IMG/VR virus record: IMGVR_UViG_2534681762_000014
Length of the DNA stretch: 35,657 nucleotides
Strand: one strand, 5' to 3'
Source: a virus
Taxonomy: Duplodnaviria > Heunggongvirae > Uroviricota > Caudoviricetes
Part shown: positions 3,510 to 27,856 of the stretch, in pieces
How positions within the stretch are numbered: position 1 is the first letter of the stretch
Layout: each line of letters begins with the position of its first letter
Notes under the pieces: model-generated
Databases searched by the model: none
What the model was told of the DNA's origin: nothing
The model's input: only the letters and a program-made list of their open reading frames with translations
Position numbers and translations under genes: made by a program

Positions 3510-5778
3510 AGCCTCCGGGCGTTTTGTCCCTCCGTCAGCATTTGCCGCAGGCACCGGTAAGATGTTTACCGGTGCTTATGCATGGAACGCGCCACGCGAG
3601 GCCGTCGGGCGCGAAAGACCCCTTACACGTGATGAGATGCGTCAGGTGCAAGGTGTTTTATCCACGATTAACCGCCTGCCTTACTTTTTGCGCTCACTGT
3701 TTACTTCACGCTATGACTACATCCGGCGCAATAAAAGCCCGGTGCACGGGTTTTATTTCCTCACATCCACTTTTCAGCGTCGTTTATGGCCGCGCATTGA
3801 GCGTGTGAATCAGCGCCATGAAATGAACACCGACGCGTCGTTGCTGTTTCTGGCAGAGCGTGACCACTATGCGCGCCTGCCGGGAATGAATGACAAGGAG
3901 CTGAAAAAGTTTGCCGCCCGTATCTCATCGCAGCTTTTCATGATGTATGAGGAACTCAGCGATGCCTGGGTGGATGCGCATGGCGAAAAAGAATCACTGT
4001 TTACGGATGAGGCTCAGGCTCACCTGTATGGTCATGTTGCTGGCGCTGCACGAGCTTTCAATATTTCCCCTCTCTACTGGAAAAAATACCGTAAAGGACA
4101 GATGACCACGAGGCAGGCATATTCTGCCATTGCCCGTCTGTTTAACGATGAGTGGTGGACTCATCAGCTTAAAGGCCAGCGTATGCGCTGGCATGAAGCG
4201 TTACTGATAGCTGTCGGGGAGGTCAATAAAGACCGTTCTCCTTATGCCAGTAAACACGCCATTCGTGATGTGCGTGCGCGCCGCCAGGCAAATCTGGAAT
4301 TTCTTAAATCGTGTGACCTTGAAAACAGGGAAACCGGCGAGCGCATCGACCTTATCAGTAAGGTGATGGGCAGTATTTCTAATCCTGAAATTCGCCGGAT
4401 GGAGCTGATGAACACCATTGCCGGTATTGAGCGTTACGCCGCCGCAGAGGGTGATGTGGGGATGTTTATCACGCTGACCGCGCCGTCAAAGTATCACCCG
4501 ACACGTCAGGTAGGAAAAGGCGAAAGTAAAACCGTGCAGCTTAATCACGGCTGGAACGATGAGGCATTTAATCCAAAGGATGCGCAGCGTTATCTCTGCC
4601 GTATCTGGAGCCTGATGCGCACGGCATTCAAGGATAATGATTTACAGGTCTACGGTTTGCGTGTCGTCGAGCCACACCACGACGGAACGCCGCACTGGCA
4701 TATGATGCTTTTTTGTAATTCACGCCAGCGTAACCAGATTATCGAAATCATGCGTCGCTATGCGCTCAAAGAGGATGGCGACGAAAGAGGAGCCGCGCGA
4801 AACCGTTTTCAGGCAAAACACCTTAACCGGGGCGGTGCTGCGGGATATATCGCGAAATACATTTCAAAAAACATCGACGGCTATGCACTGGATGGTCAGC
4901 TCGATAACGACACCGGCAGGCCGCTGAAAGACACTGCAGCGGCTGTTACCGCATGGGCGTCAACGTGGCGCATCCCGCAATTTAAAACGGTTGGCCTGCC
5001 GACAATGGGGGCTTACCGTGAACTACGCAAATTGCCTCGTGGCGTCAGCATTGCTGATGAGTTTGACGAACGCGTCGAGGCTGCTCGCGCTGCCGCAGAC
5101 AGCGGTGATTTTGCGTTGTATATCAGCGCGCAGGGTGGGGCAAATGTCCCGCGCGATTGTCAGACTGTCAGGGTTGCCCGTAGCCCGTCGGATGACGTTA
5201 ACGAGTACGAGGAAGAAGTCGAGAGAGTGGTCGGCATTTACGCGCCGCATCTCGGCGCGCGTCATATTCATATCACCAGAACGACGGACTGGCGCATTGT
5301 TCCGAAAGTGCCGGTCGTTGAGCCTTTGACTTTAAAAAGCGGCATCGCCGCGCCTCGGAGTCCTGTCAATAACTGTGGAAAACTCACCGGTGGTGATACT
5401 TCGTTACCGGCTCCCACACCTTCTGAGCACGCCGCAGCAGTGCTTAATCTGGTTGATGACGGTGTTATCGAATGGAGTGACCCGGAGGTCGTGAGGGCGC
5501 TCAGAGGTGCATTAAAACACGGTCGGAGAACGCCAAGTCGTCAGCAAAGAAACGGAAGCCCGTTAAAACCGCATGAAATTGCACCATCGGCCAGAATGAC
5601 CCGGTCGGAAAGAATGCAAATTACCCGTATCCGCGTTGACCTTGCTCAGAAGGGTATCAGGCCGCAGCGATGGGAGCTTGAGGCGCTGGCGCGTGGCGCG
5701 ACCGTAAATTATAACGGGAAAAAATTCACGTATCCGGTCGCTGATGAGTGGCCGGGCTTTACTGGCAGTACCACATAG
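3499..5778 (+). CDS. A: Replication initiation endonuclease A (rolling-circle initiator), about 759 aa
   Basis: Long ORF with P2 gpA-like sequence; start taken at the ATG at 3499 (MAVKASGRF); conserved Tyr-containing region (GAAGYIAKYISK). Confidence 0.85.
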   Translation: MAVKASGRFVPPSAFAAGTGKMFTGAYAWNAPREAVGRERPLTRDEMRQVQGVLSTINRLPYFLRSLFTSRYDYIRRNKSPVHGFYFLTSTFQRRLWPRIERVNQRHEMNTDASLLFLAERDHYARLPGMNDKELKKFAARISSQLFMMYEELSDAWVDAHGEKESLFTDEAQAHLYGHVAGAARAFNISPLYWKKYRKGQMTTRQAYSAIARLFNDEWWTHQLKGQRMRWHEALLIAVGEVNKDRSPYASKHAIRDVRARRQANLEFLKSCDLENRETGERIDLISKVMGSISNPEIRRMELMNTIAGIERYAAAEGDVGMFITLTAPSKYHPTRQVGKGESKTVQLNHGWNDEAFNPKDAQRYLCRIWSLMRTAFKDNDLQVYGLRVVEPHHDGTPHWHMMLFCNSRQRNQIIEIMRRYALKEDGDERGAARNRFQAKHLNRGGAAGYIAKYISKNIDGYALDGQLDNDTGRPLKDTAAAVTAWASTWRIPQFKTVGLPTMGAYRELRKLPRGVSIADEFDERVEAARAAADSGDFALYISAQGGANVPRDCQTVRVARSPSDDVNEYEEEVERVVGIYAPHLGARHIHITRTTDWRIVPKVPVVEPLTLKSGIAAPRSPVNNCGKLTGGDTSLPAPTPSEHAAAVLNLVDDGVIEWSDPEVVRALRGALKHGRRTPSRQQRNGSPLKPHEIAPSARMTRSERMQITRIRVDLAQKGIRPQRWELEALARGATVNYNGKKFTYPVADEWPGFTGSTT

Positions 5779-6081
5779 CTGAATACTTTAATTGACGCTG
5801 AAACTATCAGAGGGGATGTGTTTGATTAAATAAACAATGTGTTGAGATCTACTTACTGGGTTGTTGATAAGAAAATTTAGCTCTTGGTCAGCAAGAGATT
5901 ATACTGATTGCGATTAGGCTAGGGATAACGTGGGCAATTTCTGTTGTTGGAAGCTGGGTTTTACGAGCGAAAAAAGTATGTGATTTGTGGTTTTGCCCTT
6001 ATAGTATGCGCAATTTAGGAGTGAAAACTATAACCATAAGCTTTAATTATTTCTACTTTTTAGGTATGTCCGGAGGCTCTC

Positions 6082-7077
6082 ATGACTACTAAGCCAATGA
6101 GTCGACTATATGAAAAAATCAGCAAGGCGGGGTTTAGCCGTTCATTTATACGCAAAGTCTTACCTTCATGGTGGGACGACAGCCTAGCTGATACACCTTC
6201 AGGTAAGCAGTACGCTAGCCTTCATTTGGCTCGTGTTTTTAGTTTGTCTCCAGAAAGTCTCAAGGATGGTTCTGAATCTGCGTCTTTCAACCTTGGTGGA
6301 AATCATCGCTTTAAACATCGTGTAAATCTTGGTGAGGAAGACCTGAATGTTGCTACTGCCGTTGCATATTCTGCGGCGAGGATTGTAGCAGAGAATTTCA
6401 GTATCCCGTTTAATCCAAACGCAGAACTTAATTGGCAGGCAGTGAGGGATAAACTGCTCAGCGATAAAAAGTGGGTGGATTTGGCTTCTCTGATTGGTTT
6501 TTGCCATTCGTTAGGCATTCCTGTTGTCTACATTAAGAACTTTCCAACGGGTGCGGCAAAAATGGCTGGCCTTGCATTAAGTGTATCTGGTAGGCCAGTA
6601 ATTGTTTTAACCCAAGCTAAAACCCATGGATTTATGCTATTTGATTTGGCTCATGAGCTTGGTCATATTGCACTAGGCCATCTCAATGATCTCAATGGGG
6701 GGGTCCATGTTGATCGCAAAATTGAAGCGCAGTCTACTAACAATCTTGAGGTGGCAGCTAACAAATATGCCTTTGGTTTGATTGGTGGAAAAGAGACTTT
6801 GAGAATAGCACCTACAAGGGGCTATCTCACAGGTGAAAAATTGGCTAGAGCTGCGCTAGTATATGGTACACAGCATTGCATAGAGCCAACTCATGTAGCT
6901 TTGAACTATGGTCACAATTTAGGGCACTGGGGAGTGGCTGTTAACGCTGTTAAAAGTATTTGCGTGGGACAACCGACAGACCAATCTTTAGCTAGGCAGC
7001 TCATGATGGATGCCATCGATCACGAAAATATTAATGACGACGACTTAGAACTTTTAACGACGCTATGTGGGGTTTAA
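6082..7077 (+). CDS. ImmA/IrrE-family zinc metallopeptidase-domain protein, 331 aa, hotspot cargo gene 1
   Basis: HExxH motif in the typical ImmA/IrrE context (FMLFDLAHELGHIALGH at about residues 185-200); good RBS (GGAGG) upstream; AT-rich relative to the phage backbone. Confidence 0.7.
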   Translation: MTTKPMSRLYEKISKAGFSRSFIRKVLPSWWDDSLADTPSGKQYASLHLARVFSLSPESLKDGSESASFNLGGNHRFKHRVNLGEEDLNVATAVAYSAARIVAENFSIPFNPNAELNWQAVRDKLLSDKKWVDLASLIGFCHSLGIPVVYIKNFPTGAAKMAGLALSVSGRPVIVLTQAKTHGFMLFDLAHELGHIALGHLNDLNGGVHVDRKIEAQSTNNLEVAANKYAFGLIGGKETLRIAPTRGYLTGEKLARAALVYGTQHCIEPTHVALNYGHNLGHWGVAVNAVKSICVGQPTDQSLARQLMMDAIDHENINDDDLELLTTLCGV

Positions 7078-7080
7078 GTA

Positions 7081-7603
7081 GTGATCGTTCTTTCAGACAA
7101 TGATGTCATTTTGAAACTAGCGCAGTGTAATTTACTCCGTTACCTTCCTGAGATTTTGGAAGAGGATCCGCGAGGCATCTATGTTAGTCCGACGGCTCGT
7201 TTTCAATTATTACCGCGCAATACTGATAAAGCCATTAAGAAGTGCGGTAGTGTGGCTATTTACGAAAATGTGGAAAGATTTCTAGGAAGTGTGCAAGTTA
7301 TTGATGAAATCAGAAACGATGATTTGCTGATTAAACTTGGTGAGATACCACACATAGATGTCGGCGAACAACAGCTTTTAGCTGCATGCGTTGAGCAACC
7401 AGGAGCTTTGTTCATGACAGGTGACCGTCGATGTTTGCAGGCTGTGATGGACAATCAGACTATTGTCGCTACGGTTCATGCGCGTCTAATTGACTCAGTA
7501 ATAACCTATGAGAGTGCTCTTTTGCTTTCTGTTCGCGTTTTAGGATTTGAGACTCTATATCAACAACTACAAACGAACCCGAATCCAGATGCAATGCTGA
7601 GGA
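7081..7603 (+). pseudogene. PIN-like putative nuclease, N-terminal fragment (residues 1-174); gene interrupted by IS10
   Basis: GTG start 3 bp after the peptidase stop; N-terminal MIVLSDNDVIL resembles the first PIN strand with its acidic residue; later TGD motif; the frame runs into IS10 at 7604. Confidence 0.55.
7595..7603. repeat. IS10 target-site duplication, left copy (TGCTGAGGA)
   Basis: Identical 9-mer directly flanks both IS10 ends; fits the IS10 GCTNAGC preference. Confidence 0.85.
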
Positions 7604-8932
7604 CTGATGAATCCCCTAATGATTTTTATCAAAATCATTAAGTTAAGGTAGATACACATCTTGTCATATGATCAAATGGTTTCGCCAAAAATCAATAATC
7701 AGACAACAAGATGTGCGAACTCGATATTTTACACGACTCTCTTTACCAATTCTGCCCCGAATTACACTTAAAACGACTCAACAGCTTAACGTTGGCTTGC
7801 CACGCATTACTTGACTGTAAAACTCTCACTCTTACCGAACTTGGCCGTAACCTGCCAACCAAAGCGAGAACAAAACATAACATCAAACGAATCGACCGAT
7901 TGTTAGGTAATCGTCACCTCCACAAAGAGCGACTCGCTGTATACCGTTGGCATGCTAGCTTTATCTGTTCGGGCAATACGATGCCCATTGTACTTGTTGA
8001 CTGGTCTGATATTCGTGAGCAAAAACGACTTATGGTATTGCGAGCTTCAGTCGCACTACACGGTCGTTCTGTTACTCTTTATGAGAAAGCGTTCCCGCTT
8101 TCAGAGCAATGTTCAAAGAAAGCTCATGACCAATTTCTAGCCGACCTTGCGAGCATTCTACCGAGTAACACCACACCGCTCATTGTCAGTGATGCTGGCT
8201 TTAAAGTGCCATGGTATAAATCCGTTGAGAAGCTGGGTTGGTACTGGTTAAGTCGAGTAAGAGGAAAAGTACAATATGCAGACCTAGGAGCGGAAAACTG
8301 GAAACCTATCAGCAACTTACATGATATGTCATCTAGTCACTCAAAGACTTTAGGCTATAAGAGGCTGACTAAAAGCAATCCAATCTCATGCCAAATTCTA
8401 TTGTATAAATCTCGCTCTAAAGGCCGAAAAAATCAGCGCTCGACACGGACTCATTGTCACCACCCGTCACCTAAAATCTACTCAGCGTCGGCAAAGGAGC
8501 CATGGGTTCTAGCAACTAACTTACCTGTTGAAATTCGAACACCCAAACAACTTGTTAATATCTATTCGAAGCGAATGCAGATTGAAGAAACCTTCCGAGA
8601 CTTGAAAAGTCCTGCCTACGGACTAGGCCTACGCCATAGCCGAACGAGCAGCTCAGAGCGTTTTGATATCATGCTGCTAATCGCCCTGATGCTTCAACTA
8701 ACATGTTGGCTTGCGGGCGTTCATGCTCAGAAACAAGGTTGGGACAAGCACTTCCAGGCTAACACAGTCAGAAATCGAAACGTACTCTCAACAGTTCGCT
8801 TAGGCATGGAAGTTTTGCGGCATTCTGGCTACACAATAACAAGGGAAGACTTACTCGTGGCTGCAACCCTACTAGCTCAAAATTTATTCACACATGGTTA
8901 CGCTTTGGGGAAATTATGAGGGGATCTCTCAG
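7604..8932 (+). mobile_element. IS10 (IS4 family), complete 1329-bp copy
   Basis: Outside end CTGATGAATCCCCTAATGATTTT at 7604 and inside end ...GGGGATCTCTCAG at 8932; length exactly 1329 bp; encodes the 402-aa IS10 transposase. Confidence 0.9.
7711..8919 (+). CDS. tnp: IS10 transposase, 402 aa
   Basis: Translation recognised as Tn10/IS10 transposase (MCELDILHDSLYQF...HGYALGKL). Confidence 0.9.
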   Translation: MCELDILHDSLYQFCPELHLKRLNSLTLACHALLDCKTLTLTELGRNLPTKARTKHNIKRIDRLLGNRHLHKERLAVYRWHASFICSGNTMPIVLVDWSDIREQKRLMVLRASVALHGRSVTLYEKAFPLSEQCSKKAHDQFLADLASILPSNTTPLIVSDAGFKVPWYKSVEKLGWYWLSRVRGKVQYADLGAENWKPISNLHDMSSSHSKTLGYKRLTKSNPISCQILLYKSRSKGRKNQRSTRTHCHHPSPKIYSASAKEPWVLATNLPVEIRTPKQLVNIYSKRMQIEETFRDLKSPAYGLGLRHSRTSSSERFDIMLLIALMLQLTCWLAGVHAQKQGWDKHFQANTVRNRNVLSTVRLGMEVLRHSGYTITREDLLVAATLLAQNLFTHGYALGKL

Positions 8933-8941
8933 TGCTGAGGA
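8933..8941. repeat. IS10 target-site duplication, right copy (TGCTGAGGA)
   Basis: Exact match to 7595-7603. Confidence 0.85.
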
Positions 8942-9060
8942 TGGCTATGCGTTCTCGCAGCTCAGAAGATGTTTGTGGCTGCTTCTTTTCTTATACGCGC
9001 CCTGTATACGATTATCTGGCCTTTAAACAACATTTACCGGATCGTGCTTGGTTGCTTTAA
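8942..9060 (+). pseudogene. PIN-like gene, displaced C-terminal fragment (38 codons plus stop)
   Basis: When one duplication copy and IS10 are removed, the 7081 frame continues open for 39 codons to TAA at 9058-9060. Confidence 0.5.
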
Positions 9061-9123
9061 TCTATCCGTAATGAGTGTTTAGCGCATCAATTTGCATGAG
9101 TATATGATGCACGAATATTATAT

Positions 9124-9149
9124 AGCCCGTCAGTAATGGCGGGCTTTTT
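9124..9149 (+). terminator. Rho-independent terminator candidate downstream of the hotspot operon
   Basis: Stem AGCCCGTC/GGCGGGCT with 6-nt loop followed by TTTT. Confidence 0.45.
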
Positions 9150-9381: not shown

Positions 9382-9875
9382 TCAGTCGTTGTCAGTGTCC
9401 AGTGAGTAGTTTTTAAAGCGGATGACCTCCTGACCGAGCCAGCCGTTTATCTCTCGGATCCTGTCCTGTAACGGGATAAGCTCATTGCGGACAAAGACCT
9501 TTGCCACTTTCTCAATATCACCCAGCGACCCGACGTTCTCCGGCTTGCCGCCCATCAACTGAAAGGGGATGCGGTGTGCGTCCAGCAGGTCAGCGGCGCT
9601 GGCTTTTTTGATATTAAAAAAATCGTCCTTCGTTGCCACTTCACTGAGTGGGATAATTTTAATGCCGTCAGCTTTCCCCTGCGGGGCATAGAGAAACAGG
9701 TTTTTAAAGTTGTTGCGGCCTTTCGACTTCACCATGTTTTCGCGAAGCATTTCGATATCGTTGCGATCCTGCACGGCATCGGTGACGTACATGATATATC
9801 CGGCATGTGCGCCATTTTCGTAATACTTGCGGCGGAACAGCGTGGCCGACTCATTCAGCCAGGCAGAGTTAAGGG
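9382..9875 (-). pseudogene. Q: Portal protein Q, C-terminal fragment (gene split by IS66-family insertion)
   Basis: Translation continues the portal sequence (...NSAWLNESATLFRRKYY...) from the fragment at 12575-13123; the apparent Met at 9886-9888 lies inside the IS. Confidence 0.8.
9868..9875. repeat. IS66-family target-site duplication, left copy (GTTAAGGG)
   Basis: Same 8-mer at 12575-12582, flanking the element. Confidence 0.75.
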
Positions 9876-9928
9876 GTAACCGGCTCATTTAAACCGTCTG
9901 GTCTGTTTCCTCCGGCTCTACAAAAATA

Positions 9929-10606
9929 ATGTCCATCATTTTTAATGGACACTATCGTATGAAACACCGGACCTGGATCACTGAAGCTTTACGTCTTCAC
10001 TTTGAAGAACATTTACCCCGGGTTGTGGCCGGGCGTCGCCTGGGTGTACCAAAATCAACAGTTTGTAGTATGTTCGTGCGCTTTCGGAGAGCTGGCCTTT
10101 CGTGGCCTTTGCCCGCAGGCATGTCGGAGCAGGAACTTGATGCCTGCCTTTACGGACAATTTTCCACGGTACCAGTCGTACGTCCTGAAAGCACCGTTAT
10201 ATCCGAAGCCCCCGTGGTAAAAAAACGTCCCCGGCGGCCCAACTTCCCTTATGAGTTTAAAATCGCCTTAGTGGAGCAGTCACTGCAGCCCGGAGCCTGT
10301 GTGGCGCAGATCGCCCGGGAAAACGGAATCAACGATAACCTGCTCTTCAACTGGCGCCATCAATACCGGAAAGGTGGCCTGCTGCCTTCCGGAAAAAATA
10401 TGCCGGCACTGCTTCCCGTGACGTTAACGCCGGAGCCGGATAATAAAATCCCGGCCCCCGCACAGGAACCAGAGCAGATAAATACACCGTCCGACAGTCT
10501 GTGTTGTGAGCTGGTTCTGCCGGCCGGAACTCTCAGGCTTAAAGGTAAACTGACGCCGGCGTTATTACAGACACTTATCCGCGAAATAAAAGGGAGCAGC
10601 CACTGA
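9929..10606 (+). CDS. tnpA: IS66-family accessory protein TnpA (orf1), with an N-terminal HTH-like extension
   Basis: Contains the IS66 orf1 signature (PNFPYEFKIALVEQSLQPGACVAQIARENGINDNLLFNWR); true start may be the downstream Met at 9959. Confidence 0.7.
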   Translation: MSIIFNGHYRMKHRTWITEALRLHFEEHLPRVVAGRRLGVPKSTVCSMFVRFRRAGLSWPLPAGMSEQELDACLYGQFSTVPVVRPESTVISEAPVVKKRPRRPNFPYEFKIALVEQSLQPGACVAQIARENGINDNLLFNWRHQYRKGGLLPSGKNMPALLPVTLTPEPDNKIPAPAQEPEQINTPSDSLCCELVLPAGTLRLKGKLTPALLQTLIREIKGSSH

Positions 10607-10953
10607 TGATATCTCTCCCTGCAGGTTCGCGTATCTGGCTGGTTGCAGGTATCACCGATATGCGAAATGGCTTTAACGGCCTGGCATCAAAAGTTCAGAA
10701 CGTCCTGAAGGATGACCCGTTCTCCGGACACCTGTTCATCTTCCGCGGACGCCGGGGTGACCAGATAAAAGTGTTGTGGGCTGACAGTGACGGACTGTGC
10801 CTCTTCACCAAACGCCTGGAGCGGGGCCGCTTCGTCTGGCCAGTCACCCGTGACGGCAAGGTGCACCTTACTCCGGCTCAGTTATCCATGCTTCTTGAAG
10901 GTATCAACTGGAAGCACCCGAAACGAACGGAACGCGCTGGAATCCGCATATAA
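10606..10953 (+). CDS. tnpB: IS66-family TnpB (orf2), 115 aa
   Basis: Characteristic size and sequence; overlapping stop/start with orf1. Confidence 0.8.
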   Translation: MISLPAGSRIWLVAGITDMRNGFNGLASKVQNVLKDDPFSGHLFIFRGRRGDQIKVLWADSDGLCLFTKRLERGRFVWPVTRDGKVHLTPAQLSMLLEGINWKHPKRTERAGIRI

Positions 10954-10972
10954 CCCGTTGTAAAGTGAGGAT

Positions 10973-12544
10973 ATGGACACCTCACTTGCTCATGAGAACG
11001 CCCGCCTGCGGGCACTGTTGCAGACGCAACAGGACACCATACGCCAGATGGCTGAATACAACCGCCTGCTCTCACAGCGGGTGGCGGCTTATGCTTCCGA
11101 AATCAACCGGCTGAAGGCGCTGGTTGCGAAACTGCAACGTATGCAGTTCGGTAAAAGCTCAGAAAAACTTCGTGCAAAAACCGAACGGCAGATACAGGAA
11201 GCACAGGAGCGAATCAGCGCACTTCAGGAAGAAATGGCGGAAACGCTGGGTGAGCAATATGACCCGGTACTGCCATCCGCCCTGCGCCAGTCTTCAGCCC
11301 GTAAACCGTTACCGGCCTCACTTCCCCGTGAAACCCGGGTTATCCGGCCGGAAGAGGAATGCTGTCCTGCCTGTGGTGGTGAACTCAGTTCTCTGGGATG
11401 TGATGTGTCAGAGCAACTGGAGCTTATCAGCAGCGCCTTTAAGGTTATCGAAACACAACGTCCGAAACTGGCCTGTTGTCGGTGCGACCATATCGTGCAG
11501 GCACCAGTACCTTCAAAACCCATTGCACGCAGTTATGCCGGAGCGGGGCTCCTGGCCCATGTCGTCACCGGAAAATATGCAGACCATCTGCCGTTATACC
11601 GCCAGTCAGAGATATACCGCCGTCAGGGTGTGGAGCTGAGCCGTGCCACACTGGGGCGCTGGACAGGTGCCGTTGCTGAACTACTGGAGCCGCTGTATGA
11701 CGTCCTGCGCCAGTATGTGCTGATGCCCGGTAAAGTCCATGCTGATGATATCCCCGTCCCGGTCCAGGAGCCGGGCAGCGGTAAAACCCGGACAGCCCGG
11801 CTGTGGGTCTACGTCCGTGATGACCGTAACGCCGGTTCACAGATGCCCCCGGCGGTCTGGTTCGCGTACAGTCCGGACCGGAAAGGTATCCATCCACAAA
11901 ATCACCTGGCCGGTTACAGCGGTGTGCTTCAGGCCGATGCTTACGGTGGTTACCGGGCGTTATACGAATCCGGCAGAATAACGGAAGCCGCGTGTATGGC
12001 TCATGCCCGGAGAAAAATCCACGATGTGCATGCAAGAGCGCCCACCTACATCACCACGGAAGCCCTGCAGCGTATCGGTGAACTGTATGCCATCGAGGCA
12101 GAGGTCCGGTGCTGTTCAGCAGAACAGCGTCTGGCGGCAAGAAAAGCCAGAGCCGCGCCACTGATGCAGTCACTGTATGACTGGATACAGCAACAGATGA
12201 AAACACTGTCGCGTCACTCAGATACGGCAAAAGCGTTCGCATACCTGCTGAAACAGTGGGATGCACTGAACGTGTACTGCAGTAATGGCTGGGTGGAAAT
12301 CGACAACAACATCGCAGAGAACGCCTTACGGGGAGTGGCCGTAGGCCGGAAAAACTGGATGTTCGCGGGTTCCGACAGCGGTGGTGAACATGCGGCGGTG
12401 TTGTACTCGCTGATCGGCACATGCCGTCTGAACAATGTGGAGCCAGAAAAGTGGCTGCGTTACGTCATTGAACATATCCAGGACTGGCCGGCAAACCGGG
12501 TACGCGATCTGTTGCCCTGGAAAGTTGATCTGAGCTCTCAGTAA
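10973..12544 (+). CDS. tnpC: IS66-family transposase TnpC, 523 aa
   Basis: Characteristic size; N-terminal coiled coil, CxxC-type zinc-finger region, DDE core. Confidence 0.85.
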
Positions 12545-12574
12545 ATATCAATACGGTTCTGACGAGTCGCTTAC

Positions 12575-12582
12575 GTTAAGGG
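12575..12582. repeat. IS66-family target-site duplication, right copy (GTTAAGGG)
   Basis: Exact match to 9868-9875. Confidence 0.75.
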
Positions 12583-13123
12583 CGCTGAGATATTCCGGCA
12601 GGCCGTACAGCTCCTGATTAATATCCGGCTCCAGCAGGTGAAACACGGAGCCGGGTGCGAAGGCTGTCGGCTCGTTGAAGGACGGCACCCACCAGTAAAC
12701 ATCCTCCTCCACACCACGGCGGGTATATTTTGCCGGTGAGGTTTCCAGTCTGATGACCTTACCGGTGGTGCTGTAACGCTTTTCCAGAAACGCATTACCG
12801 AACACCAGAAAATCCAGCACAAAGCGGCTGAAATCCTGCTGGGAAAGCCACGGGTGCGGAATAAACGTTGAAGCCAGAATATTACGTTTGACGTAAATCG
12901 GTGAGCTGTGATGCACGGCAGCACGCAGGCTTTTTGCCAGACCGGTAAAGCTGACCGGTGGCTCATACCATCTGCCGTTACTGATGCACTCGACGTAATC
13001 CAGAATGTCACGGCGGTCGAGTACCGGCACCGGCTCACCAAAGGTGAATGCCTCCATTTTTGGGGCACTGGCAGTCATTTTTTTTGCCGCAGGTTGCGGT
13101 GTTTTCCCTTTTTTCTTGCTCAT
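12575..13123 (-). pseudogene. Q: Portal protein Q, N-terminal fragment
   Basis: Starts MSKKKGKTPQPAAKKMTA...; the last 9 codons of the listed ORF (to 12548) are IS-derived. Confidence 0.8.
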
Positions 13124-23234: not shown

Positions 23235-23838
23235 TTCGCGACTGCTGCCGACTGGCTCATCACCGCTTGAAGTTGCCGCCGCAAAAGCCTGTGCGGAAAT
23301 TGAAAAAACGCCGGTCAGTATTCGTGAGCTGTGGAACCCGGACACCTGCCCGGCAAATCTGCTGCCGTGGCTGGCGTGGTCATTTTCGGTTGACCGCTGG
23401 GATGATAAGTGGCCGGAAGCGACAAAACGCGCAGTTATCCGCGATGCGTATTTCATTCACTGCCATAAGGGCACTATAGGCGCAATCCGGCGTGTGGTGG
23501 AGCCGCTCGGCTATCTGATTGAGGTGAGGGAGTGGTGGCAGCTCAACGAGGAGCCGGGGACGTTCCGTATCGTTGTTGGTGTGCTTGAGCAGGGTATTAC
23601 CGAAGAAATGTATCAGGAGCTGGAGCGTCTTGTTGCTGATGCAAAACCGGCAAGCCGCCATCTGACGGGACTGGCTATCAGCTTAAGTACAACCGGCAAC
23701 ATTTTTGCCGGTGCGGGATGCTATCACGGCGACGCCATGACGGTTTATCCCTACACCCCGGAAGCCATTATTGTCGGAGGGGATTATTTCCCGGCCTCGG
23801 CCATTCATTTAATTGATAACCTGAGAGTAAACGCATGA
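23227..23838 (+). CDS. I: Baseplate/tail-fibre attachment protein I
   Basis: 203 aa; overlapping stop/start with J and H. Confidence 0.75.
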   Translation: MSDSRLLPTGSSPLEVAAAKACAEIEKTPVSIRELWNPDTCPANLLPWLAWSFSVDRWDDKWPEATKRAVIRDAYFIHCHKGTIGAIRRVVEPLGYLIEVREWWQLNEEPGTFRIVVGVLEQGITEEMYQELERLVADAKPASRHLTGLAISLSTTGNIFAGAGCYHGDAMTVYPYTPEAIIVGGDYFPASAIHLIDNLRVNA

Positions 23839-25034
23839 CAGTGAAATACTACGCCATTCTGACTAATCAGGGCGCAGCACGGCTGGCTAACGCGACGATG
23901 CTCGGCAGTAAGCTGAATCTGACGCAAATGGCCGTTGGTGATGCGAATGGTGTCTTGCCGACACCAGACCCGGCACAGACAAAACTGATTAACCAGAAAC
24001 GCATCGCGCCGCTGAATCTTCTGAGTGTTGACCCGAACAACCAGAGCCAGATTATTGCGGAGCAAATCATCCCTGAGAACGAGGGCGGATTCTGGATCCG
24101 TGAGATTGGGCTTTATGATGATGAAGGCGTACTCATTGCGGTGGCGAACTGCCCGGAAACGTACAAACCGCAGTTGCAGGAAGGCAGTGGTCGTACCCAG
24201 ACTATCCGCATGATTCTGGTTGTCACGAATACCGAAGCTATCACGCTGAAAATCGACCCGTCGGTGGTACTGGCGACCCGTAAATACGTGGATGATGAAG
24301 TCCTGGAATTAAGGCTGTATGTGGATGACCAGATGAGAAACCACATTGCCGCACAGGATCCTCATACCCAGTATGCGCAGAAACATAATCCGACATTTAC
24401 CGGAGAACCAAAAGCGCCGACGCCTGCCGCAGGAAATAACACCACGCGGATTGCGACCACTGAGTTTGTTCAGGCCGCTATTACCGCTCTGATTAACGGT
24501 GCGCCTGACACGCTGGACACACTGAAAGAAATTGCCGCGGCCATTAACAATGACCCGAAATTCAGCACCACCATTAACAATGCGCTGTCAGGTAAGCAGC
24601 CACTGGATGAGACGCTGACTCATTTGAGTGGAAAGGATGTTGCTGGTCTTCTCGCATACCTTCAATTGAAATCGGCCGCACAACGGGATGTGGGCACTGG
24701 CGCAAATCAAATCCCGGATATGAACTCTTTTCATATCTCAACGTCACAAACAGGATGGTGCAAATTTCCAAATGGACTAATTTTGCAGTGGGGAGTGACG
24801 ACAACGATATCTGCGTCTGGTAGTGTTTCTTATCCAATACCATTCCCTGGTGGTTGTTTATTTGTGGGTAAAAATACTTATAGTCCAGTGGCTGCAACAA
24901 CCGCTGTGTTTGAAATTGTTAATCCGTCTATGACTGGTTTCACTGCTGCAAACATCGGCAGTCTTACGCAAGGGTCTTCCACTTTTAATGCACCAACACC
25001 GTCAGGAATGGCGTTTTTTGCAATTGGATATTAA
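23835..25034 (+). CDS. H: Tail fibre protein H (constant N-terminal part plus currently joined variable tip), 399 aa
   Basis: N-terminus (MTVKYYAILTNQGAARLANA) is the conserved P2 fibre start; the tip begins inside the inverted repeat at 24661. Confidence 0.8.
   Translation: MTVKYYAILTNQGAARLANATMLGSKLNLTQMAVGDANGVLPTPDPAQTKLINQKRIAPLNLLSVDPNNQSQIIAEQIIPENEGGFWIREIGLYDDEGVLIAVANCPETYKPQLQEGSGRTQTIRMILVVTNTEAITLKIDPSVVLATRKYVDDEVLELRLYVDDQMRNHIAAQDPHTQYAQKHNPTFTGEPKAPTPAAGNNTTRIATTEFVQAAITALINGAPDTLDTLKEIAAAINNDPKFSTTINNALSGKQPLDETLTHLSGKDVAGLLAYLQLKSAAQRDVGTGANQIPDMNSFHISTSQTGWCKFPNGLILQWGVTTTISASGSVSYPIPFPGGCLFVGKNTYSPVAATTAVFEIVNPSMTGFTAANIGSLTQGSSTFNAPTPSGMAFFAIGY
24661..24723. repeat. 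Left inverted repeat of the invertible tail-fibre segment, containing the candidate invertase crossover site
   Basis: About 63 bp with roughly 85 percent identity to the reverse complement of 27133-27195; begins with the 10-bp palindrome TTCAATTGAA exactly where homology starts. Confidence 0.65.
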
Positions 25035-25036
25035 TC

Positions 25037-25468
25037 ATGAGCTATGTATACAGCGCTAAAAAAAACGCTTTCTATCCCGTCGAGTTGCAGGACAACTATG
25101 AGGCATCAGGAACGTGGCCTGCCGATGGGATAGAAGTTGGAGTGGATGTATTTAATATTTTTTCTCAGCTACCACCAGAAGGTAAACAGAGAATTCCTGA
25201 TAGCAATGGAATGCCTGCCTGGGGCGATATTCCGCCGCCCACTCATGATGAATTAGTTGCTGCGGCAACTGCCGAGAAACAGCATCGCATTGATGCTGCG
25301 AATGCATTCATGAGCAGCAGGCAATGGCCGGGAAAGGCCGCGATGGGGCGTCTGAGCGCTGCGGACAAAGTTCAGTATAATTTATGGCTGGATTATCTTG
25401 ATGCGCTGGAGGCAGTGGATACTGCCATCGCGCCGGATATCAACTGGCCTGCTCGCCCGGCTGAGTAG
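25037..25468 (+). CDS. G: Tail fibre assembly chaperone (gpG/Tfa), expressed orientation
   Basis: 143 aa; conserved C-terminal block (SSRQWPGKAA...QYNLWLDYLDALE) shared with the inverted copy at 26402-26830. Confidence 0.8.
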   Translation: MSYVYSAKKNAFYPVELQDNYEASGTWPADGIEVGVDVFNIFSQLPPEGKQRIPDSNGMPAWGDIPPPTHDELVAAATAEKQHRIDAANAFMSSRQWPGKAAMGRLSAADKVQYNLWLDYLDALEAVDTAIAPDINWPARPAE

Positions 25469-25544
25469 GTCACTCGATATCGGGGCTATAGAGATATCAA
25501 TCGCCTCCATTGCAGGCGTTACCAGATTTTAGCCAAATAAATAT

Positions 25545-25568
25545 CCTCCGGCATAGCCGGAGGTTTTT
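25545..25568 (+). terminator. Rho-independent terminator after tfa
   Basis: 8-bp stem CCTCCGGC/GCCGGAGG, 3-nt loop, followed by TTTTT. Confidence 0.6.
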
Positions 25569-25574
25569 CAAATG

Positions 25575-26282
25575 CGCCTATAAGGCTCTCTTACCAGCCG
25601 CGCCCTAACAGGCGCACACGATCTGACATTTGCATCCAACTTCGTTACTTACGGCCCGTAAACGGGCTGCCCGGATAGGGAATCGATAACTGCTCTCCCA
25701 TTTTATCCTCTTCAAGCTGGTGCTTTATGTAATCCTGTATCTTCGCCGTGTTCTTACCCACCGTATCGACGTAATACCCTCTGCACCAGAACTCCCTGTT
25801 CCTGTATTTGAATTTCAAATCACCAAACTGCTCGTAAAGCATCAGACTGCTTTTCCCTTTCAGATATCCCATAAAGCCGGGTACGCTCATTTTGGGCGGG
25901 ATCTCCACAAGCATATGGATATGATCTGCACAGCATTCAGCTTCCAGAATCCGTACACTTTTCCACTCACACAGCTTTCTCAAAATACAGCCTATTGCTC
26001 TACGCTTCTCTCTGTAGAACACCTGTCTTCGGTATTTTGGCGCAAATACTATGTGATATTTACAGTTCCATCGGGTGTGCGCTAAGCTCTTTTCGTTCCC
26101 CATTGGGACCCCCTTTTGATTTCTTGTTTGACACTTGCAGTTGCCAGACCGCAAGGTGTTTTAACAAATCAAAAGGGGTTTTAATAACTGGCTCAAAGCT
26201 GAAAGCTTTCCGGAACCCCCAGCCTAGCTGGGGGTTTTCTGTGCACAAAAAAGCCCCTGCATTTCTGCAGGGGCCTGATATC
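25575..26282 (-). mobile_element. IS200 (IS200/IS605 family), about 0.7 kb; boundaries approximate within some tens of bp
   Basis: Encodes IS200 TnpA; left-end region has two strong hairpins (26216-26234 and 26253-26274), the outer one preceded by A6 on the plus strand (a terminator on the tnpA strand), as described for IS200; no terminal inverted repeats expected. Confidence 0.75.
25645..26106 (-). CDS. tnpA: IS200 transposase TnpA (Y1 HUH type), about 153 aa
   Basis: Translation recognised as IS200 TnpA (MGNEKSLAHTRWNCKYHIVFAPKYRR...HIHMLVEIP...), with HUH motif HIH. Confidence 0.85.
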   Translation of the reverse strand, partial: PMGNEKSLAHTRWNCKYHIVFAPKYRRQVFYREKRRAIGCILRKLCEWKSVRILEAECCADHIHMLVEIPPKMSVPGFMGYLKGKSSLMLYEQFGDLKFKYRNREFWCRGYYVDTVGKNTAKIQDYIKHQLEEDKMGEQLSIPYPGSPFTGRK

Positions 26283-26358
26283 TGGTGCTGGCTGAATGGA
26301 ATCGAACCATCGTCTTTCCGCGTACAATGCGAAAGCTCTACCACTGAGCTAAACCAGC
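26283..26358 (-). tRNA. tRNA-like sequence, possible tRNA-Thr (anticodon UGU) variant or pseudogene, with encoded CCA
   Basis: Reverse complement reads GCTGGTT-TA-GCTCAGTGGTAGAGC-T-TTCGC-ATTGTAC-GCGGA-AAGAC-GATGG-TTCGATT-CCATT-C-AGCCAGC-A-CCA: canonical D-arm and T-loop, 7-bp acceptor stem, anticodon loop centred on TGT, but one extra nucleotide between the T-stem and acceptor stem. Confidence 0.45.
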
Positions 26359-26401
26359 AATGGTGCAGAATAATACCCGGATTCTGATAAAATGCAATAG
26401 C

Positions 26402-26830
26402 TTATTGTGGCTGAACAGGCCATTCGATATCAGGTGCAGTTGAAATGCCGAGAGCTTCCAGCGCATCGAGATAATCCAGCCACAGGTTATACTGCGCCAG
26501 CTCATCCCCCTTCAGTCTGCCAATAGCCGCTTTGCCCGGCCACTGCCTGCTGCTCATGTAATCGTTGGCCTGGCTAATCAACGCCTGTTTTTTAACGTCA
26601 GCTGCTGCAATGAGTTCTTTGCGTGTAGGTGGGGGCATATCCACCCATACTGGCATTCCATCGTCTGCTCCCAGAGCTTTTCCAGGTGGTGGTGACCCTG
26701 TAAATGTACTGACTATATCATCGCTGATATCAATCATATCAGACATGTCCCATCCCGCCGATTCATAAGACGACAGCCAGGATTTCGGGAAAAAGTTCAC
26801 AGTCGTTGCAGACCATTTATATCCGTTCAT
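26402..26830 (-). CDS. Alternative tail fibre assembly chaperone (Tfa'), inverted orientation
   Basis: 142 aa; same conserved C-terminal block as the tfa at 25037-25468, divergent N-terminus; convergent with it. Confidence 0.75.
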   Translation of the reverse strand: MNGYKWSATTVNFFPKSWLSSYESAGWDMSDMIDISDDIVSTFTGSPPPGKALGADDGMPVWVDMPPPTRKELIAAADVKKQALISQANDYMSSRQWPGKAAIGRLKGDELAQYNLWLDYLDALEALGISTAPDIEWPVQPQ

Positions 26831-26834
26831 TTAT

Positions 26835-27195
26835 TTAGCTCCCGAACGCCAGCCAGAATATTGTCATTGTACTGGCTGTATTCGTTGTGTATATGCTGAA
26901 TCGCGACGTGCTATCTACATTGACGTTGAAACTGACAGGTCCGGTTCCATAGAGGCCGGGGTTAACCAGAGCAGGAATCACACAGGAGCAACGGTTAGGA
27001 AACGGAACAGGAAAAAACACAGCGTTACCTGATGAACCACCGGTGATGTTTGGTGCATTTCCCCCATCAATACCATGCCATTTGGAAACCGGTAATAAAA
27101 TGCCATGGTTGTCGAACCGCCCGTAAAACTGCTCATATCCGGTATCTGATTCGCACCAGTACCCACGTCTCGTTGCGCGGCCGATTTCAATTGAA
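26835..27195 (-). pseudogene. Alternative tail-fibre variable tip (Hv'), frameshifted
   Basis: Minus strand encodes LKSAAQRDVGTGANQIPDMSSF..., homologous to the H tip, then changes frame (two ORFs, 26978-27235 and 26835-27020); segment length is out of phase with the H frame. Confidence 0.6.
27133..27195. repeat. Right inverted repeat of the invertible tail-fibre segment
   Basis: Reverse complement matches 24661-24723; the TTCAATTGAA palindrome is at 27186-27195. Confidence 0.65.
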
Positions 27196-27262
27196 CGTTT
27201 AAGAAAATGCAGAGATAACGGCTAACTGGCATCATCTCCGGTTTTTATTCAGGGGATCCATC

Positions 27263-27856
27263 ATGCTTATTGGCTATGTCCGCGTATCAACAAATGACCA
27301 GAATACGGAATTGCAGCGTAACGCGCTGGAGTGTGCAGGATGTGAGCTGATTTTTGAGGACAAAATCAGCGGCACGAAGTCCGACTGGCCGGGACTGAAA
27401 AAACTGCTCAGGACATTATCGGAGGGGGATACACTGGTAGTCTGGAAGCTGGACCGGCTGGGGCGTAGTATGCGGCATCTGGTCATTCTGGTTGAGGAGC
27501 TGCGCGAACGCGGCATTAATTTTCGCAGCCTGACGGATGCCATTGATACCAGCACGCCAATGGGGCGTTTTTTCTTTCATGTGATGGGTGCCCTGGCTGA
27601 AATGGAACGAGAACTCATTGTCGAGCGGACTCGCACCGGACTGGAAGCGGCCAGAGCTAAAGGTCGTATTGGTGGCAGACGTCCGAAGCTCACCGCGAGT
27701 GAGTGGGAACAGGCAGGACGGTTGCTGGCTGCGGGTGAATCACGTCAACGCGTGGTGCTGATTTTTGATATTGGCCTGTCCACGCTCTATAAAAAATTCC
27801 CCTCATCAGCGGCAAAGAATAAATTGTGTCATCCCTTAGCCAACCGGGACAAATAG
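27263..27856 (+). CDS. Serine recombinase, Din-family DNA invertase (Pin/Gin/Cin/Hin-like), 197 aa
   Basis: N-terminal catalytic domain with the active-site Ser in MLIGYVRVSTNDQ, the SMRHL and GRFFFHVMGALAEMERE blocks, and a C-terminal HTH; sits immediately outside the right inverted repeat. Confidence 0.9.
   Translation: MLIGYVRVSTNDQNTELQRNALECAGCELIFEDKISGTKSDWPGLKKLLRTLSEGDTLVVWKLDRLGRSMRHLVILVEELRERGINFRSLTDAIDTSTPMGRFFFHVMGALAEMERELIVERTRTGLEAARAKGRIGGRRPKLTASEWEQAGRLLAAGESRQRVVLIFDIGLSTLYKKFPSSAAKNKLCHPLANRDK

Follow-up and report, generated by a model that had tools for sequence, protein, structure and literature searches.

A P2-like prophage of Escherichia coli carries a Din-type tail-fibre cassette that is most likely degenerate and locked

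Described inversion systems and the present locus

Din invertases, which are able to act in trans and to use imperfect quasi-sites, are found beside the G segment of phages Mu and D108, where fibre genes are arranged as Sc-Sv-U / U'-S'v and each 26-bp site consists of two 12-bp halves around a 2-bp core. The e14 P segment of E. coli K-12 (stfP-tfaP / tfaE-stfE / pinE) places a tip and its tfa ahead of an inverted tfa' and tip' with the invertase just outside, and its inversion has been demonstrated experimentally (PMC4272514). Among P2-like elements, invertible loci lie between G and FI in the EPEC E2348/69 prophages, in pro483 (whose annotation lists two tips and a DNA invertase) and in Salmonella Fels-2 (Fin), and in EPEC cultures both orientations have been shown to coexist (PMC4272514).

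We analysed a 35,657-nucleotide stretch of DNA (the window; IMG/VR record IMGVR_UViG_2534681762_000014) that belongs to a P2-like (Peduovirus) prophage of E. coli. Its genes follow the P2 order and families (A; Q P and O N M L ...; V W J I H G; FI FII E T U D; Pfam families Tail_P2_I, Phage_sheath, Phage_GPA and others) and are collinear with an annotated P2-type prophage of CP039404 and with P2, with which the window has in common the late order V W J I H G ... FI FII E T U D and the replication protein A. Because an IS66-family element splits the portal gene, the prophage is defective. The first-pass annotation had placed a cassette of the Mu G / e14 P type at the P2 Z/fun variable locus and had described it as absent from P2 itself; the architecture and family assignment were right. 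The cassette lies between G and FI, and in P2 this position is indeed taken by fun(Z), without an invertase or second tip.

Compared with the described systems, the window shares the logic of the Mu/D108 G segment, the gene order of e14 and the G-FI position of the P2-like invertible loci, and its invertase is 84% identical to a cluster named 'serine-type DNA invertase Fin' by its source. It differs from Mu/D108 in having a TT core where gix has a TC core (with inner half GGTTTACAGGAA), Trp42 where Gin has Arg42, and one frameshifted tip where both Mu tips are functional. Its right outer half-site, TTTTCTTAAACG, is nearly the same as that of e14, TTTTCATAAACG, and both have a TT core, whereas PinE of e14 has the Arg that is Trp42 in the window invertase; unlike e14, the window has a frameshifted alternative tip, and an IS200 element and a tRNA gene within the segment. 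Relative to the P2-like invertible loci, the window lineage has different tips, hybrid sites, R42W, a frameshifted tip and a single orientation.

Layout of the segment and its crossover sites

The features of the locus, with coordinates in the window, are as follows.

23835-25034, plus strand: tail-fibre gene H, expressed form, 399 aa (PF12571 at residues 1-150, PF21882 at residues 310-399; PGAP: phage tail protein)
24649-24674, plus strand: left crossover site, TTCTCGCATACC TT CAATTGAAATCG, core TT at 24661-24662
24661-24723, plus strand: left arm of the inverted repeat, first 19 bp perfect and the remainder similar at coding level
25037-25468, plus strand: tfa, coding for a G-like tail-fibre assembly protein of 143 aa that partners the expressed tip (PF02413, E 2e-31)
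25542-26246, minus strand: IS200C insertion, with tnpA at 25645-26103 (PF01797; NF033573, 143 bits) and 5' leader STnc490 at 26113-26236 (RF01405, 146 bits)
26251-26358, minus strand: tRNA-Thr(UGU) gene at 26283-26358 (ARAGORN; Rfam tRNA, 56 bits) with an intrinsic terminator at 26251-26276 (terminator scan)
26402-26830, minus strand: tfa', silent alternative assembly protein, 142 aa, intact (PF02413, E 2e-27)
26835-27195, minus strand: alternative H' tip, pseudogene (PF21882 fragment; 1-nt deletion)
27182-27207, minus strand: right crossover site, TTTTCTTAAACG TT CAATTGAAATCG in minus-strand reading, core at 27194-27195
27263-27856, plus strand: Gin/Pin-like serine invertase, 197 aa (PF00239, E 8e-50; PF02796)

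A repeat search returned arms at 24649-24731 and 27125-27207 (83 nt, 81% complementarity), and the inverted repeat of about 63 bp proposed earlier (24661-24723 and 27133-27195) was borne out, with 54 of its 63 positions identical (86%, counted by hand). It begins with a perfect 19-bp core, TTCAATTGAAATCGGCCGC, at 24661-24679, whose reverse complement lies at 27177-27195; by our own arithmetic, the chance expectation of a perfect 19-bp inverted repeat within 6.5 kb is about 1e-4. Beside the crossover core the arms are thus perfectly identical for 19 bp and about 80% identical over the following 44 bp, a difference that could reflect continuing constraint on the DNA sequence. Those arm mismatches that could be placed mostly affect the third base of a codon, since LQLKSAAQRDVGTGANQIPDM is encoded by both arms.

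The constant part of H ends at 24660 and the tip starts at 24661. Between the arms, the H tip and tfa are followed by inverted tfa' and H' tip, as the first-pass annotation had it and as the Pfam matches agree, and the start codon of the invertase gene is 67 bp from the right core, which places the gene immediately outside the right repeat as claimed. While this earlier layout was right, it had overlooked the IS200 element, the tRNA-Thr(UGU) gene and the break in frame between the repeat and the H' tip. The IS200 element, which has a Y1 transposase, a structured 5' leader, a length of about 0.7 kb and a known empty site, is a 705-bp insertion relative to locus L002; it is absent from L002 and L003, which are otherwise 98-99% identical, and sits within the tRNA terminator's T-tract. 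The tRNA-Thr gene runs in the same direction as tfa' and H', is kept in IS-free relatives and missing from canonical relatives, and has its nearest matches among phage tRNA-Thr genes (77-80%). Upstream of it a consensus scan found no sigma-70 promoter, and a weak TTGCAT-N16-TATTAT was seen by eye only; codon counts for ACA, taken to see if the tRNA might serve ACA-rich fibre genes, are too small to say anything.

The crossover was located, as had been suggested, by aligning the repeats with known sites (gix, pix), and specifically with those of the pro483, M160133, O157 and LR-25 prophages and with that of e14. The two cores are identical and in inverted orientation (TT at 24661-24662, AA at 27194-27195) and keep the register of the relatives' and e14 sites, such that the 2-bp core is the first TT of the palindrome TTCAATTGAA found at 24661-24670. 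A reading of this palindrome as the centre of the site, with an AT core, was rejected because it is the first TT on which the cores of the relatives align and from which the arms are identical in every locus; judging from these alignments, the palindrome is probably incidental. Both outer half-sites, TTCTCGCATACC and TTTTCTTAAACG, fit the canonical 12-bp half-site TTxTCxxAAACC, a consensus that we drew from five P2-like loci together with D108 and e14. The inner half-site of canonical P2-like relatives is identical to that of e14, GGTTTGGGAGAA, whereas the inner half-sites of the window, CAATTGAAATCG, match this pix sequence at 4/12 positions and gix at 3/12, which is chance level, so that each site would appear to fall short of two canonical half-sites.

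The junction in the present state reads ...GCATACCTTCAATTGAAATCGGCCGCACAACGGGATG..., and that of the inverted state is predicted to read TTCTCGCATACCTTCAATTGAAATCGGCCGCGCAACGAGACG, also written ...GCATACCTTCAATTGAAATCGGCCGCGCAACGAGACG... The LQLKSAAQRDVG junction was also tried as a marker of other invertible systems and set aside, as the 379 weakly matching E. coli records were ordinary fibre genes or canonical switches. The IMG/VR matches carrying LQLKSAAQRDVG (L025, L028, L031, L041) each contain the motif once, and in L025, the one of the four in which an inverted partner was looked for, none was found.

Lesions and orientation of the cassette

Three-frame translation placed the lesion of the alternative tip in a run of G residues shortened from six to five (plus-strand C5 at 27061-27065), which parts the frame of the repeat from that of the gp53-like C-terminal domain. 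Intact homologues of H' retrieved by protein search (P0001 and P0002) read ...FPNGMVLMGGNA..., which locates the 1-nt deletion, and the shortened run is common to 9/9 loci checked. A distant blastn search with the H' tip against E. coli genomes returned the three carriers alone. When the segment was inverted in silico, the fibre stopped at 347 aa with its last 40 residues junk and the gp53-like domain in another frame. Since every copy has this frameshift in its H' tip, the second state cannot yield a full fibre, and the constant part is not joined in frame to a second complete tip as it is in Mu S/S' and P1 S/S'.

The invertase is a small serine recombinase with a resolvase domain and a C-terminal HTH that lies beside the segment, as expected of the Din family. 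Its residues 1-184 align with the Mu Gin structures 3uj3 and 4m6f (E about 1e-92, about 78% identical by our own count), and its identity to the top cluster representatives, P0097-P0099, is 94-96%. The first-pass annotation had called the gene intact, which holds for its open, full-length reading frame and for Ser9 and the HTH, but not for codon 27386-27388, a TGG that puts Trp42 in place of a fully conserved Arg; from its sequence, the enzyme thus appears to lack the complete conserved set of active-site residues. Trp42 was present in 15/15 loci of the window type, across four alleles, and Arg at this position in 120/120 nearest cluster representatives, in all canonical relatives and in PinE of e14. 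The nearest Arg allele, that of EC0885, differs by 4 nt, has AGG for TGG, and stands beside canonical sites; over the first 220 bp of the gene, the differences from flipping relatives are a few synonymous ones and codon 42. It is the 5' part of the invertase gene that, in Din systems, contains a cis-acting Fis-dependent recombinational enhancer. The four Trp42 alleles differ from one another by three nonsynonymous and no synonymous changes, a ratio compatible with relaxed constraint in numbers too small to test. The recognition helix, GLSTLYKKF, is identical in window-type and canonical alleles, and therefore nothing suggests a change in site specificity to match the altered inner half-sites. 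The equivalents of Arg42 are Arg43 in Hin and Arg45 in Tn3 resolvase. Mutation of the equivalent Arg reportedly inactivates Hin (PMC3798978), and in Tn3 resolvase R45A and R45K gave no in vivo resolution and 45- to 300-fold slower cleavage, with some in vitro activity retained by R45 mutants in a hyperactive background (PMC2794168).

The census of orientations gave the same picture throughout the window type, which was in the present orientation in 3/3 complete E. coli genomes, in 24/24 and 24/24 contigs from exact-protein look-ups for tfa' and tfa (two overlapping sets; the tfa protein occurs in 152 index blocks), in one IMG/VR contig and in one JGI metagenome contig, the last from a search whose degenerate junction pattern fits either state. 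The E. coli complete genomes, the tfa/tfa' contigs, IMG/VR and the JGI metagenomes yielded no inverted copy, and the window-type copies found thus share one orientation; a minority inverted population may exist inside cultures, below the level of assemblies. A canonical relative, by comparison, was found as 38 copies in its query orientation versus 42 inverted among 5426 E. coli genomes. The window-type counts are of assemblies, which are phylogenetically non-independent, with about five haplotypes separable. The three lesions (the H' deletion, Trp42 and the inner half-sites) were present in all copies examined.

A locked cassette and its alternatives

The earlier reading of the locus as a working host-range switch is unsupported, because of the H' deletion, Trp42, the poor inner half-sites and the single orientation. 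In its full form, that reading has two functional fibre tips alternating in a two-state switch, and while the complete Mu G / e14 P architecture is in place, the invertase frame is open and aligns strongly with Gin, both sites have one and the same core dinucleotide and inversion is evident in canonical relatives, the H' frameshift in every copy already contradicts it, and it runs further against R42W, the non-canonical inner half-sites and the lack of any inverted copy, so that we give it almost no credence. We consider instead that the locus is a degenerate Din-type tail-fibre cassette, most likely locked in the state in which the intact 399-aa H is expressed together with its tfa. In working relatives, the invertase binds two 26-bp sites, TTCTCGCATACC-TT-GGTTTGGGAGAA and TTTTCATAAACG-TT-GGTTTGGGAGAA, and cuts at the central TT, upon which the 1.8-kb segment flips and the late operon runs from the constant part of H into either tip, each with its own assembly protein. 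In the window lineage, the first codons of foreign tips put CAATTGAAATCG in place of the inner half-sites, the enzyme carries R42W, and the silent H' tip, less one G, is out of frame; singly or together, these lesions would be expected to abolish or strongly reduce inversion.

Counting against a relic are the full-length invertase frame with Ser9 and the HTH intact, the canonical outer half-sites and TT cores, the in vitro activity left to the Tn3 R45 mutants, and the trans action and quasi-site use known for Din invertases. An unlikely alternative is a slow or trans-driven ON/OFF switch, in which residual activity of the Trp42 enzyme, or the Din invertase of a co-resident prophage, would occasionally flip the segment and so turn the fibre from functional to truncated and back, with the tRNA-Thr gene then in sense to the late operon. 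The canonical outer half-sites and cores, the perfect 19-bp identity and the residual activity of the resolvase mutants would fit such a switch, as would a second invertase-like locus in Z1323PEC0014, but 377323_2f and EC12 are without a second invertase homologue, no inverted copy occurred among the assemblies examined, and the unchanged recognition helix also speaks against it. Far less probable is that the copies share one orientation only because a young clone was sampled, with enzyme and sites fully active and nothing but the alternative tip dead. Window-type copies are indeed 98-100% identical, with four invertase alleles, yet they vary by up to 2% and in IS200 presence or absence, host and country, whereas both orientations already occur among canonical copies that share 99.8% identity with the canonical query; moreover, R42W hits a residue whose mutation inactivates Hin.

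For the degenerate cassette that we favour, the discovery value is little, since Din-type tail-fibre switches of P2-like elements are already annotated in phage records and their flipping has been shown experimentally. The locus does illustrate that an open invertase reading frame beside inverted repeats is no proof of a live switch, and that the point is checkable in silico by asking if the alternative tip is in frame, by inspecting catalytic residues and half-sites, and by counting orientations across genomes. In addition, an R42W allele and hybrid sites occur here naturally, an R42 relative 4 nt away on canonical sites is a ready control, and this R42W / R42 pair could gauge the contribution of each half-site and of Arg42 to inversion.

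As to where the tips came from, similarity to the nearest canonical prophage, EC0885, breaks off precisely at the TT core on either side, and non-invertible fibre genes of other prophages contain ...GAAACG TT CAATTGAAATCGGCCGC..., of which 24 nt are identical to the right arm of the window and which looks like a quasi-site. Doubtful as it is, one scenario would be that the invertase captured foreign tips and the tRNA-Thr gene at such quasi-sites, which left hybrid sites that could not be flipped and was followed by R42W and decay of the silent tip. If this were true, the segment would record how new fibre tips enter an inversion cassette.

The prophage and its inverted segment

The window matches contig AQEJ01000024.1 (GCA_000355115.2) at 100% identity across 10.4 kb and E. 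coli Z1323PEC0014 at 99.9% identity across 6.7 kb, and contains a whole P2-like prophage, after which comes a cation-efflux gene. Gene set and order are of P2 type, in agreement with the first-pass annotation: integrase, Cox-side early genes, replication protein A (PF05840), Q and P on the minus strand, capsid and lysis genes, V W J I H G, and FI FII E T U D. Portal gene Q, unbroken (344 aa) in the IS-free relative CP039404, is split by an IS66-family element, so that virions cannot be made by the window copy and this prophage is defective whatever the state of its switch. Window 5757-9148 is also unlike the 0.87-kb stretch at the equivalent place in CP039404, and two proteins (331 and 186 aa) are possible cargo of the P2 variable (tin/old-type) locus.

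Insertion elements and variable-region genes of the prophage
9876-12575: IS66-family element, 2.7 kb, interrupting Q
9929-10606: HTH_Tnp_1 ORF of that element
10973-12544: IS66 transposase
9382-9888 (-) and 12548-13123 (-): ORFs flanking the element (split Q)
7711-8919: transposase (DDE) of an IS10-type element located between gene A and Q, in the variable region; its RNA-OUT at 7649-7718 (-), 99.5 bits
6082-7077: 331-aa protein, IrrE/M78 peptidase-like domain
7081-7641: 186-aa ORF without Pfam match

A repeat search recovered the inverted repeat that had been described around the tail-fibre locus and confirmed its reported position, with arms at 24649-24731 and 27125-27207 (83 nt, 81%) and a perfect 19-bp core, TTCAATTGAAATCGGCCGC, which lies at 24661-24679 and recurs as the reverse complement at 27177-27195; by our own arithmetic, chance expectation of a 19-bp perfect inverted repeat in 6.5 kb is ~1e-4. 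Over the 44 bp beyond this core the arms are ~80% identical, and the placeable mismatches lie mostly at third codon positions, a bias that arises because both arms encode LQLKSAAQRDVGTGANQIPDM. Pfam bore out the gene list proposed earlier, including an invertase gene just outside the right repeat. P2 has fun(Z) at this place and no invertase, so the architecture is, as claimed, absent from P2 itself.

Genes and elements of the inverted segment and its border
H: tail-fibre gene, 399 aa, tail-collar N-terminal domain and gp53-like C-terminal domain
tfa: assembly-protein gene, 143 aa
25542-26246 (-): IS200C between the two tfa genes, with tnpA (NF033573) and STnc490 leader (146 bits)
26283-26358 (-): tRNA-Thr(UGU), followed by a hairpin terminator of its own (26251-26276)
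tfa': 142 aa, inverted
H' tip fragment: gp53-like, inverted
Invertase: 197 aa, resolvase and HTH_7 domains, start 67 bp outside the right arm

IS200C and the tRNA gene, like the frame of the alternative tip, had gone unmentioned in the first-pass annotation. IS200C, inserted in the T-tract of the tRNA-Thr terminator, is absent from the otherwise 98-99% identical loci of strains 377323_2f and EC12; it was found in some carriers only, and the short-read contigs of several carriers stop at it. The tRNA-Thr(UGU) runs in the direction of H' and tfa', is kept in IS-free relatives and is missing from canonical relatives (P2-like prophages with e14-type sites), its best matches, 77-80% identical, being tRNA-Thr genes of N4-like and Klebsiella phages. 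A consensus promoter scan for this tRNA found none, and ACA codon counts in the fibre genes are too small for a link to it.

Lesions in tip, sites and invertase

Inverting the segment in silico revealed that the H frame continues past the repeat into ...FPNGMVLMGEMHQTSPVV... and ends at 347 aa, with the gp53-like domain of H' in a different frame from the repeat. A search with the repaired tip recovered two intact homologues, P0001 (80% identity) and P0002 (74%), reading ...FPNGMVLMGGNAPGISGGSSGNAVFFP..., which shows that the window has lost one G from a G6 run (27061-27065, where the plus strand reads C5). Because 9/9 related loci examined have this G5 run, it is no single-assembly sequencing error. 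The frameshifted H' tip cannot complete a fibre, which rules out the switch between two host ranges that the first-pass annotation had proposed.

For the crossover sites, the canonical set came from four P2-like relatives (phage pro483; prophages of M160133, O157 180-PT54 and LR-25), and e14 (pix) and D108/Mu (gix) sites were extracted likewise.

Crossover sites as outer half-site, core and inner half-site (right sites as reverse complement)
Canonical left: TTCTCGCATACC TT GGTTTGGGAGAA (one inner-half base differs in 2/4 relatives)
Canonical right: TTTTCATAAACG TT GGTTTGGGAGAA
e14: CTCTCGAAAACC TT GGTTTGGGAGAA and TTTTCATAAACG TT GGTTTGGGAGAA
D108/Mu: TTATCCAAAACG TC GGTTTACAGGAA and TTATCTAAAACC TC GGTTTACAGGAA
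Window: TTCTCGCATACC TT CAATTGAAATCG and TTTTCTTAAACG TT CAATTGAAATCG

Inner half GGTTTGGGAGAA and right outer half TTTTCATAAACG are common to e14 and the canonical set, indicating that the canonical P2-like switch employs these e14 pix half-sites, and both have a TT core whereas that of Mu/D108 is TC. Aligning the window repeats to pix/gix-type sites, as had been suggested, placed the 2-bp core as TT. The window sites keep their outer halves and TT cores, and the inner half-site on both sides matches pix at 4/12 and gix at 3/12 positions, which is chance level. The palindrome reported earlier, TTCAATTGAA, is indeed present, but it consists of the TT core plus the first bases of the foreign inner half. 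Nothing hints that invertase specificity changed to match these sites, because the recognition helix GLSTLYKKF is the same in canonical and window-type alleles (those of loci carrying the window's segment). A P1-like plasmid (NZ_CP085058.1, 3510-3535) carries TTCTCGCATACC TT CAATTGGGAGAA within a 1212-aa fibre gene, a junction whose inner half is intermediate between those of the canonical set and the window, and which thus also occurs as ordinary coding sequence (AYLQLGE).

The invertase aligns with solved Mu Gin over residues 1-184 (E ~1e-92). It had been called intact, and its ORF is open with Ser9 present, but residue 42, a conserved Arg, is replaced by Trp (27386-27388, TGG). W42 occurs in 15/15 window-type loci (four alleles), whereas Arg, in the motif (D/E)RPGL, occupies the position in all canonical relatives, e14 PinE and 120/120 nearest 90%-identity cluster representatives; the closest Arg allele, from strain EC0885, differs by 4 nt (codon AGG) and adjoins canonical sites. 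The equivalent residues are Arg45 in Tn3 resolvase and Arg43 in Hin. In Tn3 resolvase, R45A and R45K abolished resolution in vivo and lowered cleavage rates to 0.0034 and 0.022 of the parental rate, with residual in vitro activity noted and a structural role suggested by the authors (PMC2794168). The four W42 alleles show 3 differences, 3/3 nonsynonymous, which are too few to test and would be compatible with relaxed constraint.

Orientation across assemblies and state of the switch

To calibrate orientation, the canonical segment of M160133 with 500-bp flanks, as-is and inverted in silico at the core, was searched against 5426 complete E. coli genomes (at least 80% coverage), which revealed it as-is in 38 and inverted in 42, one genome holding one copy of each. 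Because copies 99.8% identical to the query differ in state, canonical switches invert quickly compared with the pace of sequence divergence, and the near-equal counts indicate that assemblies sample both states about equally. Both orientations coexist in clonal cultures for e14 and EPEC P2-like prophages (PMC4272514). For the window-type segment, H was joined to the intact tip in 3/3 complete genomes, in 24/24 contigs with the exact tfa' protein and 24/24 with the exact tfa protein (overlapping sets), in the sole IMG/VR contig of this type and in the sole JGI metagenome contig matched by an either-junction pattern. None of these held an inverted copy, so the suggested check for both orientations, made here on assemblies, yielded the as-is state only. 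The copies are not independent, with ~5 separable haplotypes that differ by at most 2%, IS200 presence, host and country.

The anatomy of the locus, its lesions and their distribution among carriers were observed directly, and we infer from them that inversion activity has been lost. We consider it likely that the locus, a member of the e14/Mu-type tail-fibre inversion family, is degenerate and probably locked. The late operon would read H into the sole intact tip and then tfa, leaving the H'-tfa'-tRNA-Thr module as a presumably silent remnant on the opposite strand; inversion would be blocked or very rare, given an R42W enzyme and sites with one consensus half each, and any that occurred would still give a truncated fibre. 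The main alternative, in which residual or trans-acting invertase activity rarely inverts the segment and the locus would be an ON/OFF fibre switch and not a host-range switch, seems unlikely; the resolvase mutants did keep some cleavage, and every window-type copy was in one state. The lesions predate the window's IS insertions, because they are common to the otherwise intact-looking 377323_2f prophage.

Similarity to the nearest canonical prophage ends precisely at the core on either side, and GAAACG-TT-CAATTGAAATCGGCCGC is carried by non-invertible fibre genes elsewhere, which would fit capture of foreign tips through invertase action at quasi-sites, a speculative origin that we regard as improbable.

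Tail-fibre inversion and its probable decay

In two canonical relatives (L012, O157 180-PT54; L013, LR-25), the PGAP annotation breaks H into two partial pieces ~400 bp apart, which suggests more disrupted H genes among P2-like prophages. Tail-fibre inversion systems of this kind are well known and already annotated, as 'DNA invertase' in pro483 and under the protein name 'serine-type DNA invertase Fin' given by one source, and inversion of such prophage loci has been experimentally shown in EPEC. The window locus is a decayed member of this group with unusual cargo.
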